Made by a program: the position numbers and the translations under genes. A DNA stretch of 40,986 nucleotides from Myxococcota bacterium. GTDB lineage: Bacteria > Myxococcota_A > JAVEVO01. The stretch spans positions 1-40,986 of the forward strand of contig JAVEVO010000055.1 in the NCBI GenBank assembly GCA_034005005.1. The letters run 5' to 3'. The notes beneath the pieces were generated by a model, which saw only the letters and a program-made list of their open reading frames with translations, was not told the origin of the DNA and searched no databases. Of this stretch, positions 18,479 through 40,986 are shown piece after piece (the stretch's first letter is position 1; each line of letters opens with the position of its first letter).

Positions 18479-20197
18479 ATGCGAGAGTGCCGTCAATGCG
18501 GCTGGAAGGGCGAGGGGACCCGCTGCCCCGTCGATGGGCTGCTCACCGTCGATCCCCTCGAGCTCACCGAGCCGGACGACCCCAACAGCTTGATCGGCCA
18601 GGTGATCGGCGACAAGTACCTGGTCGAGTCCCGTCTCGGCAAGGGGGGCATGGGGACCGTCTGGCGGGCCCGGCATCGCCTGCTGAATCACGGCGTTGCG
18701 CTGAAGGTCATCGACCCGGCGGTCGCGGATCCCCAGCAGGCCTCCCAGCGGTTCTATACCGAGGCGCTCTCCTGCAGCCGGCTCAGCCACCCCAACACGA
18801 TCCGCATCTTCGACTTCGGGATCCTGCCCCAGGGCTCGTTCTACATGGTCATGGAGCTGCTCCGGGGCCACGACCTGCAGGCCGAGCTGAACCATCACGG
18901 GGCGTTGTACCCGCTGCGCGCCGTACGTATCGCCCGGCAGGTCTGCAAGTCCCTCAGCGAGGCCCACGCGGCGGGGGTGATCCACCGTGACCTCAAGCCG
19001 TCCAACGTCTTCCTCGCCGAGGTCCACGGCGAGCCCGATCTCGTCAAGGTGATCGACTTCGGCATCGCCAAGCTCTTCGCAGTGGAGTCGAGCGCCGCGC
19101 TCACGGGCACCGGGACCTACCTCGGCACTCCGCGCTACATGTCGCCGGAGCAGGCCAGCGCGAGCCGGGTCGACCTGCGCACCGATCTCTACTCCCTCGG
19201 GGTCGTGCTCTACGAGATGCTCGTCGGCACCATCCCCTTCGAGGCCTCCGCCCCCACCGCCCTGCTCCTGGCGCACACGATCCAGGCCCCGCGGCCGCTC
19301 CCCGAGACCCTCGCCGGCGTCGTGCCCCCGCCGGCCATGCGTGAGCTGGTCGCCGGGCTGCTGGCCAAGGACCCCACCGAGCGGCCGGCCAGCGCGGACG
19401 AGGTCGCCCTGCGCCTCGCCACGGTCGAGGCCGATCTGCTCGCGAGCGGCTGCACGGACGCGCTCGCCCGGGACGAGAGCCGGCAGCGCGCCGCCCTGGC
19501 CGAGGCGCGGGACGAGACGTCCCTCCCGGCCCCGCCCCCCGTCCGGCTACCGCCGGCGGGCCCCGCCGGGGGCGCTCCCGGTGACCTGCCGGCCGGCGTC
19601 CTCGTCGACCGCGGGCCGCCGGCCGGTCCGGCGGACTCCCGCGAGCTCCGGCCCCGGTCCGGGAGGGGCTGGCTGGTCGTCGGGGCCTTGCTCTTCGTCG
19701 TCGCGTTCGGGGCGGGCGGTCTCGGCCTGGGGCTGTTGCTCCGTGGCCAGCAGGCGCCGACGGCTCCAGGCGCGGTCCCCGCACCCGGGCCGGCGGCCAG
19801 GGCCGCCTCCGGCGAGGCGGCGCCGACCCCGTCCCCGGACGGGACGCCGCCCCCGGCGGTGGCCGCGGCGGCCCTGGGGACCGGCCCCGCGCGGGTCCAG
19901 GTCACCTCCGTGCCGGCGGGGGCGCGGATCGAAGAGGACGGCCGGCTCCTCGGAGTCACCCCCCTCGAGCTGCCCCCCGGAGCGGAGCACCGGTCCCTCG
20001 TCCTGAGCTTGCCGGGGTACCACGCCGCGACGGTGATCGTCGACGGTCGGGGAGGGGGGCCGCGTGCCGTCGTGCTGGAGCCGCTGACCCCTCCGTCCGG
20101 GCCGCACCCCGGGCGCTCCGGGCGCCCCGCCGGCCGGCCTGGTGCCCAGGCCCGGGACCAGCCGGCGGGTGAGATCCAGGTCGACTACGGGTTGTGA
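18479..20197 (+). CDS. serine/threonine protein kinase with N-terminal zinc ribbon and C-terminal PEGA domain
   Basis: Zinc ribbon CRQCGWKGEGTRCP. Kinase motifs GKGGMGTV, HRDLKPSNV, DFGIAK and GTPRYMSPE are present. A TM helix WLVVGALLFVVAFGAGGLGLGLLL follows. The terminal PEGA-like block is RVQVTSVPAGARIEEDGRLLGVTPLEL. Confidence 0.85.
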   Translation: MRECRQCGWKGEGTRCPVDGLLTVDPLELTEPDDPNSLIGQVIGDKYLVESRLGKGGMGTVWRARHRLLNHGVALKVIDPAVADPQQASQRFYTEALSCSRLSHPNTIRIFDFGILPQGSFYMVMELLRGHDLQAELNHHGALYPLRAVRIARQVCKSLSEAHAAGVIHRDLKPSNVFLAEVHGEPDLVKVIDFGIAKLFAVESSAALTGTGTYLGTPRYMSPEQASASRVDLRTDLYSLGVVLYEMLVGTIPFEASAPTALLLAHTIQAPRPLPETLAGVVPPPAMRELVAGLLAKDPTERPASADEVALRLATVEADLLASGCTDALARDESRQRAALAEARDETSLPAPPPVRLPPAGPAGGAPGDLPAGVLVDRGPPAGPADSRELRPRSGRGWLVVGALLFVVAFGAGGLGLGLLLRGQQAPTAPGAVPAPGPAARAASGEAAPTPSPDGTPPPAVAAAALGTGPARVQVTSVPAGARIEEDGRLLGVTPLELPPGAEHRSLVLSLPGYHAATVIVDGRGGGPRAVVLEPLTPPSGPHPGRSGRPAGRPGAQARDQPAGEIQVDYGL

Positions 20198-20199
20198 GG

Positions 20200-21330
20200 A
20201 TGTCTGCAGAGCACGGCGTGCGCGGTACATTGCAACGAGACCTCAGCGGGAGCCAGGGACCGCGGGCGCGGCGCCGGCGTCCGGGCTGGCTGCCGTCCGG
20301 GGTGCTCCTCCTGCTGCTCGGTGCTGCCGGGGCGAGCGCGGCTGCGCCGCGGCCGGCCAACACCGAACTCCAGGACCTGGTCGACGCGGCCGACGAGCTG
20401 TTCCGCGCGGGAGACCATGCCGCGGCCCTCGCCGGCTACCAGGAGGCCCTGCGTCGCTCCCCGCTCCCCGCCCTGCACTACCCCATCGGGCGGTGCCTGC
20501 AGGAGCTCGGGCGCCTCCCCGAGGCGCTGGCGTCCTTCGAGACCTTTCTCGCCGGCCCCGCGCCCGCGGCCGCCCGGATCAAGGTCGAGCACATCGTCGC
20601 GCAGCTCCGCCGGCAGCTCGCGCAGGGGCGCCTGGTGCTCCAGGTGGAGCCCTTCGGCGCCGCGATCCTCGTCGATGGCGAGCTGGTGGGCCGGGCGCCG
20701 TTGCCCCCGTGGCCGGTCACCCCCGGGGAGCACGAGCTCGTGGTCCGGCAGGCGGGGTACCAGGAGGACCGGCGTCGGGTGAGCGTGCCGGGGGGTGGGG
20801 AGCTGGTGGTCGTGGTCCTGCTCGCCCCCCTCGCCGAGGTCGTCCCGTCGGGCGCCGCGCCGCCCGCCCTGGCCGCCGAGCCACCTGCGGCCGGCGCCCC
20901 GGGCGGGCCGGTCGCGGCGGGGGGGAGCACCGCGGCCTCCCCCGGCGCGCCGCCCGCGGCCGGCCTCGGCTCCCCGGCGCCTCCCGGCGCGGCCAGCCGC
21001 CTCCCCGCCCTGCTCGTCCTCGGTGCGGGCCTGGCCTGTGGCGCGGTGGGCGGGACGCTCCTCGTCCTCGGCGACCTGGACCACGGGGCGATCGAGGAGG
21101 CCCCGGGGTACGGGAGCGGGGAGGTGGTCCAGATGACCCGGAGCCGGGCCCTCGCGCTGGAGGCCAGCGGCGACGGCAAGAAGCGGTGGGGGACGATCCT
21201 CGCGGGGGCCGGGGGCGCGGCGGTGGCTGCGGCCGGGCTGCTCGTCCTGCTCCGGCCCACGACGGCGGGGCCCGTGGCCGTGACCCTGCAGCCCGGCCCC
21301 GGCGGGTTCGCCCTCCAGGGGAGGTTCTGA
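20200..21330 (+). CDS. secreted TPR + PEGA domain protein
   Basis: Signal peptide WLPSGVLLLLLGAAGASAAAP. A TPR-like region (ADELFRAGDHAAALAGYQEALRRSP...) is followed by a PEGA-like block RLVLQVEPFGAAILVDGELVGRAPLP...GEHELVVRQAGYQE and a C-terminal TM. An alternative GTG start at 20194 overlaps the kinase stop (GTGA). Confidence 0.7.
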   Translation: MSAEHGVRGTLQRDLSGSQGPRARRRRPGWLPSGVLLLLLGAAGASAAAPRPANTELQDLVDAADELFRAGDHAAALAGYQEALRRSPLPALHYPIGRCLQELGRLPEALASFETFLAGPAPAAARIKVEHIVAQLRRQLAQGRLVLQVEPFGAAILVDGELVGRAPLPPWPVTPGEHELVVRQAGYQEDRRRVSVPGGGELVVVVLLAPLAEVVPSGAAPPALAAEPPAAGAPGGPVAAGGSTAASPGAPPAAGLGSPAPPGAASRLPALLVLGAGLACGAVGGTLLVLGDLDHGAIEEAPGYGSGEVVQMTRSRALALEASGDGKKRWGTILAGAGGAAVAAAGLLVLLRPTTAGPVAVTLQPGPGGFALQGRF

Positions 21331-21332
21331 CC

Positions 21333-22565
21333 GTGGCTCGGCCGCGTGCGACCTACCTCCTGGCCCTCCTCGTCCTGCTGAGCGGGCCCGGTCTGCCGGG
21401 GTGCCGGCAGCCCGATGTCGCCGGCCAGCTCTGGCACTGCCGCGTGGACGCCGACTGTGGCGGTGGCTGGAGCTGCCGCCAGGGTGTCTGCCGCCCCCCG
21501 GGCTGGACCCCGCCCCCGGATGGCGGCTCCCGGCTGGACGGGGGCGAGGAGGTCGATCAGGGCCCCGCGGACGACGCGCAGCCGGGCGACGGGGGGGCTG
21601 CCGATGCGCAGCGCGCGGACCTCGGCCCCGACGACCTCGGCCCCGACGACCTCGGCCCCGACGACTTCGGCCCCGATGACCTCGGCCCCGACGACCTCGG
21701 CCCCGACGACCTCGGCCCCGACGACCTCGGCCCCGACGCCGGTGGGTGCGGTCCCTGCGGCGCCGGGCAGGAGTGCGACCGGCTCGGGGTCTGCCGACCG
21801 CGGCAGCTCCTCGTGGCGGAGGGGAGCTTCCTCCTCGGCAGCCCGGCGGGAGAGGTCGGCCGGGAGGCGGACGAGAGCGCTCACCTCGTGCAGGTCTCGT
21901 CCTTCCTCATCGACCGGCGGGAGGTCACCAACGCCGACTACCTGCGCTGCCGCCAGGAATCCCCGAGCTGCCCGGCCCCCCTGCAGTGCGACGCGGGGCT
22001 GCCGGACTGGAACCCCAGCGGCGAGTCCTTCCCGCCGGCCCTCGGGGACCACCCCCTGCGCTGCGCGACCTGGGCCATGGCCGACGCCTATTGCCGCTGG
22101 GCCGGCAAGCGGCTGTGCACCGAGGCCGAGTGGGAGCGGGCGTGCGCCGGTGCGGCGCACCGACCCTTCCCCTGGGGCGACTGGCCCCAGGCCCCCGAGC
22201 GCTTCCTCAACTGCACCGAGGGGACCTGCCATGACGGGCACGCCGGGACCGCCGCCGTGGGCAGCTTCCCGGAGGGGGCCACGCCGGAGGGTGGCCTCGT
22301 CGACCTCGCCGGCAACGTCGGCGAGTGGGTCCAGGATTTCTACCAGGCGGCCTACCAGGAGGACGACCCCGTCGACCCCCGTGGGCCTTGCCACGGCGTC
22401 GGACCCTGCGAAGGGTTCCTCTCCCGGGTGCTGCGGGGTGGATCCTATATCTCTTCTAGGTCTAAAGTACGCTGTTCCGAGCGTGGAATGGGACTAGAGT
22501 CCCCGGTGGAGGGCCTGGCTCCGGCCACGGCAGGCATCCGCTGCTGCCAGGACGCTCCGCCGTGA
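21333..22565 (+). CDS. lipoprotein with formylglycine-generating-enzyme (FGE-sulfatase/SUMF1) domain and DLGPD x8 tandem repeat linker
   Basis: Lipobox LLSGPGLPGC. The FGE-domain motifs are EFLLGSP...AHLVQVSSFLIDRREVTNADY, RLCTEAEWERAC and VGEWVQD...RVLRGGSY. The GTG start sits 2 nt after the preceding stop. Confidence 0.75.
   Translation: MARPRATYLLALLVLLSGPGLPGCRQPDVAGQLWHCRVDADCGGGWSCRQGVCRPPGWTPPPDGGSRLDGGEEVDQGPADDAQPGDGGAADAQRADLGPDDLGPDDLGPDDFGPDDLGPDDLGPDDLGPDDLGPDAGGCGPCGAGQECDRLGVCRPRQLLVAEGSFLLGSPAGEVGREADESAHLVQVSSFLIDRREVTNADYLRCRQESPSCPAPLQCDAGLPDWNPSGESFPPALGDHPLRCATWAMADAYCRWAGKRLCTEAEWERACAGAAHRPFPWGDWPQAPERFLNCTEGTCHDGHAGTAAVGSFPEGATPEGGLVDLAGNVGEWVQDFYQAAYQEDDPVDPRGPCHGVGPCEGFLSRVLRGGSYISSRSKVRCSERGMGLESPVEGLAPATAGIRCCQDAPP
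21621..21740 (+). repeat. 8 x 15-bp tandem repeat (ctcggccccgacgac) encoding (DLGPD)8
   Basis: Direct reading finds 8 consecutive 15-bp units with only 3 substitutions, in frame inside the FGE lipoprotein linker. Confidence 0.9.
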
Positions 22566-31261: not shown

Positions 31262-34199
<2,938 letters not shown>

Positions 34200-38716: not shown

Positions 38717-40114
38717 ATGATCCGTCGCGGCCCAGCCCTGGTCCTGCTTCTCCTGCTCGGACCGGGTGGTTGCTCGCCAGCGGGGGATCCGCCGCCGGCC
38801 GCGTGCGTCCCGGACGCGGTCACGGCCGCGCGCTGCCCCGCCGAGCGCCCGGCGCCGCCCCGGCTGCCGGGCCAGCGACTCGAGCATTCCCTGGCCGAGT
38901 TCTGGCTCGCCCGCATCCCGGAGCCGTCCCGGCTGCTCCTCGACGAGGAGGGGATCGCCCGCCTCAACCGCCGGCTGACCCGGCTGCGCGACCGGGGGGA
39001 GCCGGTGGGGCGCTGGGATCTCGGCTCCCGGGTCCTCGCCGCGGGCGAGCCGGAGCAGCTCCTCGACCGCCGGCTCACCCGGCTGCGGGAGCGGGTCCAC
39101 CGGGAGGAGCGGGTCGGGGCGCAGGGCGCGCCGGGCCGGGCGGTGCTCGCCGAGATCGAGGCCAACCTCCTGGCCAGCCAGCCCGCAGACGAGCTCCGGG
39201 TGGCCACGACCTCGACCGCGATCCGCTGTCAGCCCTCGGCGGCACCCTTGCTGGAGGCTCCCGGGCAGGAGGCCTTCGACACCCTGCAGTGCTCCCTGCT
39301 CTCCTTCGGCGAGCCCGTGCGTGTCCTGCGTAAGTCTTCGGATTTCTGGCTGATCTTGACCGAGTACGTGCAGGGCTGGGTCTCGCCGGCGGCCCTGGGG
39401 CCGCCCCTGGCGCCGGCGGAGCTCGCGGCCTACCGTCAAGCTCCCCGCTTCCTGGTGATCACCCAGGACCGGGCGCCGGTGCTCGCTGCGCCAGGGGGCG
39501 AGCTGCTCGGGGTCGCCCGCCTCGGCCAGCGCCTGCCCCTGCTGGACGCCACGGCCGCGGGGTATGCGGTCCGCGCGCCACACGTCGGAGGGCTGGGGCC
39601 GGCCTGGATCCCCGCGGGCAGCGGCGCTCCCGGGTACCTGCCCCTGACCCGGGAGACGGTCTTCCGGCTCGCCTTCTCCCTGCTGCACAGTCCCTACGGC
39701 TGGGGCGGCGCGGGAGACGGCCGGGACTGCTCGGCCTTCCTGATGGACCTCTTCGCGGTCTGCGGCCTCGCGCTGCCCCGCAACTCCGCCCAGCAGGCCG
39801 AGGCCGGCAGCGAGCAGGTGGACCTCGCGGCTCAGCCCCTGGGCGGGCGGGTCGCGGCCATCGAGGCCGCGTCCCGGCGAGGTCTGGTCCTGCTCTACCT
39901 GCCGGGCCACATCATGCTGTACCTGGGGCGCGACGGGGACGACCTGTACGCCTTGCACCAGCTCTCCGGCTACCTCGTGCCCTGCCCTGGTGGTGGGGAG
40001 ACCAAGGTCCGGGTGAACCGGGTCGCGGTCACCCCCCTCACCCTCGGGCGGGGGACCTCCCAGGGGAGCCTGCTGGAGCGGCTCACGCGGCTGACGGTGC
40101 TGGGACCGCGCTAG
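38717..40114 (+). CDS. lipoprotein with C-terminal NlpC/P60 cysteine peptidase domain
   Basis: Lipobox LLLLGPGGCS. The C-terminal region YGWGGAGDGRDCSAFLMDLFAVCGLALPRNS ... GHIMLYLG supplies the catalytic Cys and His of NlpC/P60. The middle region may contain SH3b-like repeats. Confidence 0.75.
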   Translation: MIRRGPALVLLLLLGPGGCSPAGDPPPAACVPDAVTAARCPAERPAPPRLPGQRLEHSLAEFWLARIPEPSRLLLDEEGIARLNRRLTRLRDRGEPVGRWDLGSRVLAAGEPEQLLDRRLTRLRERVHREERVGAQGAPGRAVLAEIEANLLASQPADELRVATTSTAIRCQPSAAPLLEAPGQEAFDTLQCSLLSFGEPVRVLRKSSDFWLILTEYVQGWVSPAALGPPLAPAELAAYRQAPRFLVITQDRAPVLAAPGGELLGVARLGQRLPLLDATAAGYAVRAPHVGGLGPAWIPAGSGAPGYLPLTRETVFRLAFSLLHSPYGWGGAGDGRDCSAFLMDLFAVCGLALPRNSAQQAEAGSEQVDLAAQPLGGRVAAIEAASRRGLVLLYLPGHIMLYLGRDGDDLYALHQLSGYLVPCPGGGETKVRVNRVAVTPLTLGRGTSQGSLLERLTRLTVLGPR

Positions 40115-40436
40115 CGCGGCCGGGGTCCGGCGGGGCTCATCATTGATCGCATCCTTTGAGACACATTCTTTCGTCCTGCCAGGGCAAAACCGAATTGTGC
40201 TCCCTCGAACAAGCTGCGGCGCTCGACACTGCCGCGCATCAAAGTGATCCACCCCGGTGGGCCGTTGCGTTTCCGATGCCCGCCAAGCGCCGCGATGGCG
40301 TTGTTTGGCTGGAGGATGGTGGGATTGTTCGGGAGCTTCATCCAGTTCGCGGCCGCCATGTCGAGCACAGCCAGTTCCAGCTCGGAGAGCACCCAGCTCG
40401 CCGGGGTGTCGGGCTGCTCATCCGTCAAGTGGCGCA

Positions 40437-40528
40437 GCGTCACTCCGGCGGTTCGTGCGCAAAAGGCGATCGAACTGGCCGGTTGAAGCGTCACTCCGGC
40501 GGTTCGTGCGCAAAAGGCGATCGAACTG
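40437..40528. repeat. two identical 41-nt direct repeats (gcgtcactccggcggttcgtgcgcaaaaggcgatcgaactg) spaced with a 51-nt period
   Basis: Direct reading gives copies at about 40437-40477 and about 40488-40528. The region is non-coding and of lower GC. Confidence 0.85.
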
Positions 40529-40746
40529 ACCGATCAGGAGTCATCTGGGGCGTTGTCGCACTCGTCTCGGGACTCCACCGGTGGCGGGGTCCGTTCGACC
40601 ACCTCGCTGGCCCGACGCGACGATGCGCGATCCGCCGCCAGGATCGCGTCCCCGAGCTGAAAGGGCGATCGCCGAGATCTTCAGGATCATGAGCCAGTGG
40701 GACGGCTGAACGTCCTCGAGGACAGCTCTTCGTGGCATTGAGGGGC

Positions 40747-40986
40747 CATCAGTCGTCCAATCGTCATCGAATGCAACGCTCCGTTGCACTGGCGGGCGAT
40801 CAGTCGTCCAATCGTCATCGAATGCAACGCTCCGTTGCACTGAGGGGCGATCAGTCGTCCAATCGTCATCGAATGCAACGCTCCGTTGCACTGAGGGGCG
40901 ATCAGTCGTACAATCGTCATCGAATGCAACGCTCCGATGCACTGGCGGGCGATCAGTCGTCCAAACGTCATCGCATGCAACTCTCC
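40747..40986. repeat. 51-bp tandem repeat array, at least 4.7 copies, truncated by window end; each unit contains a 7-bp stem hairpin tgcaacg-ctc-cgttgca
   Basis: The unit gatcagtcgtccaatcgtcatcgaatgcaacgctccgttgcactg(a/g)(g/c)gggc repeats head to tail with 1-3 substitutions per copy. GC is about 53%. Confidence 0.9.

Follow-up and report, generated by a model that had tools for sequence, protein, structure and literature searches.

A probable 51-bp minisatellite in the debris of an IS4-family insertion sequence from a Myxococcota bacterium

Introduction

What is a tandem array of hairpin-bearing 51-bp units doing at the very end of a bacterial contig? The question is raised by a stretch of 40,986 nt from a Myxococcota bacterium (assembly GCA_034005005.1, contig JAVEVO010000055.1, positions 1 to 40,986), which we refer to as the window. 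Its last few hundred nucleotides hold two families of repeats, and the second of these runs off the end. An earlier note, made from the DNA letters and their open reading frames, had offered three readings of this array: a structured small-RNA array, an iteron-like array bound by protein, or a satellite marking a mobile or foreign element. Here, we follow up these readings by looking for relatives of the repeats and of the DNA around them, and by weighing what the related copies have in common against what each has lost.

Our preferred reading, to which we give a probability of about 0.7, is that the array is a minisatellite lying within insertion sequence (IS) debris and has no detectable function; we infer both the mechanism by which it arose and the origin of its unit. 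Junk DNA is the likeliest status of the 51-bp repeats, ahead of an array of RNAs, of protein-binding sites or of CRISPR units. The array would then be a clean negative, in which a striking series of hairpins at a contig end turns out to be neither a new RNA nor a defence locus.

Two duplications that share a period

Tandem Repeats Finder reports two repeats with a period of 51 nt near the window end, one with 1.9 copies at 40436-40532 (97% matches) and one with 5.0 copies at 40731-40986 (92% matches, without indels), the latter being cut by the end of the window. The first is a tandem duplication of two 51-nt units on the minus strand (40436-40537), whose copies start at 40436 and 40487 and share 42 nt exactly. 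It sits in frame inside the transposase relic described below, such that SSIAFCARTAGVTL is read twice. The earlier note had recognized this duplication and placed it one base off, as 41 nt at 40437 and 40488. The second is the minisatellite itself, which we assign to the minus strand at 40747-40986. It comprises 4.7 units of 51 nt, reading GATCAGTCGTCCAATCGTCATCGAATGCAACGCTCCGTTGCACTGAGGGGC on the plus strand, and is truncated by the window end; its minus-strand reading is a 17-aa repeat, DRPSVQRSVAFDDDWTT. Tandem Repeats Finder agrees with the first description of this array as about 4.7 units that begin near 40747 and run off the window, and a degenerate partial unit, CGTGGCATTGAGGGGC, precedes them at 40731-40746. 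This partial unit closes a conserved stretch of about 150 nt that is common to all copies and precedes the array on the plus strand (40596-40746, assigned to the minus strand), and which we call the leader.

Neither unit has a further occurrence elsewhere in the window. When up to one mismatch is allowed, a 31-nt core of the array unit has four matches, and shuffled windows yield none. Both repeat families are real, as had been proposed, and they are unrelated in sequence, with 376 of 500 shuffles aligning as well as the two units do. That two sequence-unrelated duplications (40436-40537 and 40747-40986) should have an identical period of 51 nt is an observation that we count against our best reading. 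Elsewhere in the window, at 21618-21738 in a plus-strand ORF (20142-22565), a 15-nt unit is repeated 8.1 times at 96% identity and encodes (DLGPD)x8. This forms an apparent linker before a C-terminal domain that by eye looks FGE-sulfatase-like, and it appears to be an ordinary coding repeat.

Most array units carry the stem TGCAACG ctc CGTTGCA, with seven base pairs and a 3-nt loop. The earlier note had placed this hairpin in each unit, and it is present in most, but in unit 4 of the window a change from T to A breaks the stem and is not compensated. Differences between units cluster at unit positions 44-48, a stretch of 5 nt near the unit junction (for example 40790-40794 and 40841-40845), where the variants CTGAGGGGC, CTGGCGGGC, CAGGCGGGC, CTGAGTGGC and CAGGTGGGC are found; outside this stretch the units hardly vary. 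GC content drops at about 40125 and is 57-67% from there to the window end, compared to about 74% for the window and genome. The array measures about 57% rather than the 53% given previously. This low GC had been taken to argue against coding; it does mark foreign DNA, but the whole patch is a minus-strand transposase relic. Not every frame stays open through the array, as had been claimed, but two out of three per strand do.

An IS4-family remnant in the last 870 nucleotides

Judged from its sequence, the terminal stretch of about 870 nt (from about 40136 to the end) is a decayed, internally deleted IS4-family insertion sequence, resembling Tn5 and IS50 and lying on the minus strand. It begins about 20 nt past the stop codon of a gene for an NlpC/P60 and SH3b protein (38717-40114). 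Its outer terminus, CTCATCATTGATCGCATCCT when read from the outside inwards, occupies 40136-40155 on the plus strand, and we infer the exact first base. Similarity to an independent copy with another flank, metagenome contig L002, starts at GC[G/A]GGGCTCATCATTGATC, and the same motif opens the second IS end of L002 and of two other copies, L004 and L005. Read from 40136, the terminus begins with CT and matches five of the seven specified positions of the end consensus of the IS50 subgroup, CW------Y---CA-A--W- (PMC2266710).

Inward of this terminus, the minus strand at 40159-40443 retains a relic of the C-terminal 85-95 codons or so of a Tn5/IS50-like transposase of the IS4 family, inside the ORF at 40111-40494. 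This minus-strand ORF matches the NCBIfam model for IS4-family transposases, NF033590, over positions 321-403 of 405 (E 6e-7). An exhaustive profile search gathered 5,064 transposase relatives, the full-length members of which are about 470-490 aa long, and 107 of these went into a profile of 476 positions. This profile matches the window at positions 388-468 (E 3e-25), and all 107 full-length relatives match the window solely at the 40159-40443 relic. The cut-off of NF033590 for full-length members is 160 bits, and the window and a further copy, L003, score far below it. Neither the YREK region nor any of the three DDE residues is detectable in the window copy, where the profile matches positions 388-468 only. 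An uninterrupted transposase ORF, which in relatives has about 475 aa, is absent from every copy, and stops, frame changes and internal deletions are found in each. The transposase tail has no relatives in the genome collection, and an intact master copy was not found there.

The window copy has lost an internal part. L003 and L005 carry transposase positions of about 239-354 where the window has 40538-40595, and the deletion junction lies within that interval, given that similarity to L003 begins only at 40596. Similarity between the window and L005 is likewise split, into 40168-40438 and 40600-40867, and the intervening sequence measures 279 nt in L005 and 162 nt in the window. The sole candidate for an inverted partner of the 40136 terminus is a 10-nt match at 40686-40695 (ATCATGAGCC against GGCTCATCAT). 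We judged this putative left inverted repeat to be a chance match, as the similarity ends at 10 nt and the structure is not simplified by it.

Related copies in metagenomes

A search with the unit pattern recovered the array unit from three JGI metagenome contigs, L001 to L003, and two further copies, L004 and L005, were reached through proteins. Searching 185,579 species-representative genomes and the viral contigs with this pattern gave no match. In every one of the six known copies, the window included, the array unit is joined to IS4-like fragments, and the flanking DNA is of at least three kinds: the NlpC/P60 gene in the window, a YhgA/Rpn-like gene in L002 and another sequence in L005. 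The suggestion that the repeats are a satellite marking a mobile or foreign element was essentially correct, the element being an IS4-like remnant.

The most informative relative is L002, which holds the whole element at 90-97% identity to window positions 40130-40986. There, the element interrupts a YhgA/Rpn-like gene for a putative transposase or nuclease (L002 985-1170; PF04754, E 3e-8) after about 60 codons. The transposase homologue in L002 gives a weak hit to the dimerisation domain of Tn5. The array of L002 is complete; about 5.5 units are followed by a degenerate unit, by about 65 nt, and then by a second decayed transposase 3' end with its IS terminus. All three contigs that cross the array have this second transposase 3' end past the array and the roughly 65 nt. 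The second terminus lies in direct rather than inverted orientation in each of them (L002 at 2076-2217, L004, and L005 at 1-190). The far flanks differ, with L004 having the same far flank as L002. L005 is a more diverged copy, at 83-89% identity. L003 overlaps the window only at 40596-40986, and the arrays of L001 and L003 sit at contig ends. The leader (40596-40746) is 97-98% identical in L001 and L002, 92.5% in L003 and 89% in L005. L001, L002 and L004 each have a single copy of the 40436 unit, making the duplication private to the window copy.

All copies are pseudogenes, each with its own deletions and frame disruptions. Transposase positions 388-470 are retained in the window and L002, 255-354 in L003, and both 239-326 and 367-470 in L005. 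Divergence between the window and L002 is discontinuous, with 90% identity in the tail (40130-40483) and 97-98% in the leader and array (40487-40986). Such a discontinuity points to a mosaic element or to conversion of one copy by another. The better conservation of the leader and array than of the tail, which we count against our best reading, could reflect gene conversion or, less likely, function.

Tests for a functional array

That last possibility leads to a rival that we consider improbable, namely that the leader and array form a functional non-coding module, be it a repeat RNA, or a promoter or protein-binding array with effects on nearby genes such as have been proposed for BrickBuilt (see below), carried on a non-autonomous IS-derived element. 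Conservation is the main point in its favor. The leader and array are 89-98% conserved across loci, and between the window and L002 they are conserved beyond the adjacent transposase tail. Each unit has a hairpin, and there is a precedent in BrickBuilt, a 23-nt minisatellite with leader and tail in a MITE of Porphyromonas gingivalis (Klein et al. 2015, PMC4596501) that has bidirectional promoter activity.

Direct tests point away from such a module. No Rfam family matches the array, with the best E value of 0.49 lying far below gathering scores, and the matches that appear at a permissive threshold are eukaryotic miRNA and snoRNA noise. Folding the whole array, on one strand or the other, gives structures no more stable than those of shuffled sequence (z -0.5 and -0.8), and no sigma-70-like promoter or intrinsic terminator was found. 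Among 17 units from the six copies, the hairpin is broken in two and weakened to a G-T pair in two others, both of them edge units, and there are no compensatory changes. These results do not support the proposal of a structured small-RNA array. An iteron-like array is not supported either; there is no replication gene nearby, the neighbors being the NlpC/P60 gene and transposase relics, and no similarity was found in 72,556 plasmid and 50,697 phage records. Furthermore, known copies number just six, each of them within IS debris and truncated in its own way, and the L002 element interrupts a gene instead of occupying a regulatory site.

Origin of the repeat unit

We next consider where the unit came from. 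The array probably derives from transposase-coding sequence, as its position, strand, frame continuity in L003, composition and equal constraint would suggest. About as improbable as a non-coding module is the rival in which the leader and array are foreign DNA unrelated to the transposase gene, joined to IS4 fragments either as a hot spot for insertion or as a passenger between two IS ends. This rival draws on the array being bracketed by two direct IS termini in L002, L004 and L005, and on the leader and unit being without detectable transposase homology. Indeed, when the leader and unit were compared to the N-terminal half of the 107 intact relatives, no significant similarity was found in any frame. 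For the first 100 codons, no BLAST match to intact proteins had an E value under 1, and extensions of the match into the leader were unconvincing. Missed homology is weak evidence, though, given that the N-terminal halves of IS4 transposases are poorly conserved and that this one has decayed.

Against a foreign origin stands L003, where the array lies on the same strand as the transposase and shares a continuous frame with it. The frame that reads QRSVAFDDDWTTDRPS runs without a stop into NF033590 positions 195-283 (E 3e-15), and it also matches positions of about 255-354 of our profile, some 57 codons downstream. This match includes YRKRWVIE, which has the form Y-(2)-R-(3)-E and stops before the Lys of the IS4-family signature around the catalytic Glu, Y-(2)-R-(3)-E-(6)-K (PMC2266710). 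The GC content and constraint of the leader and array also match the rest of the remnant. Together with the leader, the array lies upstream of the central transposase region, in the position expected for the early part of the gene; it shares the strand of the transposase and, in one copy at least, its frame too.

Attempts to find the source of the unit more precisely gave little. By eye, an ungapped alignment appeared to put the first catalytic Asp motif in the unit (VAFDD/LVVHD, MIQHIS/FLAHVS, RDPGG/REPLG), but 371 of 2,000 shuffles score equally and other frames score similarly too, and we rejected it. A search across the remnant for a single-copy source of the unit returned a marginal unit-like stretch at the start of the L003 leader only (3 of 200 shuffles).

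A reading that we find somewhat more doubtful than either of these joins selection and mobility. The leader and array would be a selected module copied to several loci and bracketed by direct IS4-type termini, constituting a new non-autonomous composite element whose repeats are transcribed or bound by protein. If true, it would explain why conservation exceeds that of the transposase relic and why the frame and hairpin persist.

A relic reading frame

Equally doubtful is the rival that the minus-strand frame encodes a functioning protein built of 17-aa repeats, (DRPSVQRSVAFDDDWTT)n, perhaps a domesticated or truncated transposase derivative. The frame reading VAFDDDW on the minus strand is open through the leader and repeat in all six copies, which we count against our best reading, and the alternative open sense frame gains a TAG in L005. 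Gene callers predicted the frame (P0002). Between diverged copies, pN/pS of the leader and unit is 0.50-0.59. Differences fall 5, 2 and 8 on the three codon positions, an excess at the third (8 of 15) that is in the direction expected of coding sequence and is not significant by chi-square.

This constraint is no stronger than that of the neighboring pseudogene, since pN/pS of the transposase tail is 0.52-0.66, and the similarity of the two is in keeping with a former coding frame in decay rather than with a protein under selection. The end point of the ORF and the sequence downstream differ in every copy, and the one start codon available in L002 and in L004 belongs to the terminus of a different IS fragment. 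GC3 of the repeat frame is 0.57, far from the value of about 0.9 for the genome's genes (0.92 in the neighboring gene). No Pfam or NCBIfam domain matches the repeat, and a search of 5.8 billion clusters yielded just four related proteins, each a fragment. No further array ORFs came from a chimeric protein query that combined several frames, and a look-up of the window's own repeat-spanning ORFs found no record. The earlier note had looked to homologues for a 17-aa-repeat ORF with coding-like substitutions as the sign that would overturn its non-coding view. Such an ORF does occur in relatives and in L003 runs into transposase residues, but its substitution pattern is weakly coding-like and the same as that of the pseudogene. 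The 17-aa-repeat ORF is a relic reading frame, not a live gene.

Finally, an atypical CRISPR array or an assembly artefact is scarcely credible. The array shares a regular unit, a short palindrome and a location at a contig end with what either might produce, but its units abut in all copies, the complete L002 array included; a 51-nt unit without spacers and with no leader or cas context is unlike CRISPR, which the lack of spacers in any of the six copies excludes, as first claimed; and separate assemblies from JGI and from ENA data both contain the array, with unit variants that tell them apart.

Growth and loss of units

We return, then, to a minisatellite within IS debris, and to how it could have arisen. 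The units abut head to tail without spacers in all copies. Unit counts come from short-read assemblies in which repeats may collapse and are lower bounds: 4.7 or more in the window, about 5.5 in L002 and about 2.5 in both L004 and L005, those of L005 being diverged. Units at the edges are degenerate, internal units are near-identical and homogenized, and the order of units differs between the window and L002. A homogenized interior, degenerate edges, a partial unit, differing unit order and variable count are together a signature of slippage or unequal recombination. The array would therefore have grown and shrunk by replication slippage or by unequal recombination between its units, and hairpins forming in the units when the lagging-strand template is single-stranded may favor slippage. 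As single-stranded DNA, the array unit folds with a z of -1.8 (12 of 200 shuffles as good), and the 40436 unit forms a hairpin of -14.2 kcal/mol (z -3.0, 1 of 200 shuffles as good). The two-unit duplication at 40436 would then be a second and more recent event of the same kind, in the transposase relic.

The locus itself can be followed across samples. The NlpC/P60 protein is identical in five other contigs from different samples, and none of these reads through the repeats. Three of the five, L007, L009 and L011, are 99.8-100% identical to the window, and their ends fall 25-30 nt inside the first 51-nt unit at 40436. These matches indicate that the insertion beside the NlpC/P60 gene is fixed at this locus in the population. 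It is the repeats that break these short-read assemblies, and they account for the end of the window itself within the array. Farther from the repeats, at about 31269-34199 on the minus strand (L007 2553-5483), the window encodes a 976-aa product with precomputed Pfam matches to MVP_shoulder and, weakly, Vault_3. This major-vault-protein-like gene has as neighbors genes for a T2SSE ATPase, an HMG-CoA synthase, a TSP_3-repeat protein, a radical SAM enzyme and PanD.

Comparison with known systems

The array has the properties by which bacterial minisatellites, or VNTRs, are recognized: spacerless units within about 10-100 bp, a variable count and degenerate edge units. Mycobacterial MIRU and ETR VNTRs also have units of tens of base pairs, often a multiple of three, in high-GC genomes, with strain-variable number and degenerate edges. 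MIRUs occupy the gaps between operon genes and form a family scattered across the genome. The array is alike in its class of unit size and differs in being confined to copies of one IS remnant. It might serve as a VNTR marker to distinguish strains of this bacterium, which is uncultured and high in GC.

Among insertion sequences, the IS50 subgroup of the IS4 family is the closest comparison (De Palmenaer et al. 2008, PMC2266710). The C-terminal region of the transposase is homologous, L002 gives the weak Tn5 dimerisation match, L003 has the Y-(2)-R-(3)-E, and the one visible terminus fits five of the seven consensus positions. The window element differs from members of this subgroup in that it is not an intact IS; it retains about 85 transposase codons, has neither an inverted partner terminus nor an 8-9 bp target duplication visible in the window, its other end lying past the window or having been destroyed, and has a 51-bp minisatellite in place of the upstream part of the gene.

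BrickBuilt is the nearest parallel for the array as a whole (PMC4596501). Both have spacerless head-to-tail repeats with a flanking leader and tail, in a non-autonomous transposon-derived element found at several loci with variable unit number. BrickBuilt has 23-nt units, ends with small inverted repeats, is present in 19 copies per genome in strictly intergenic positions, and has measured promoter activity. The window element, in contrast, has 51-nt units, direct IS termini and few known copies, one of them inside a gene, and no promoter-like sites. Like a MITE, it is multi-copy, but direct rather than inverted repeats bound it and it retains relic coding sequence. It would nonetheless provide a second example, after BrickBuilt, of a satellite arising in a transposon-derived element in bacteria. 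The 51-nt period shared by its two unrelated duplications is a small curiosity, which could be a coincidence or could reflect a shared geometry of slippage.
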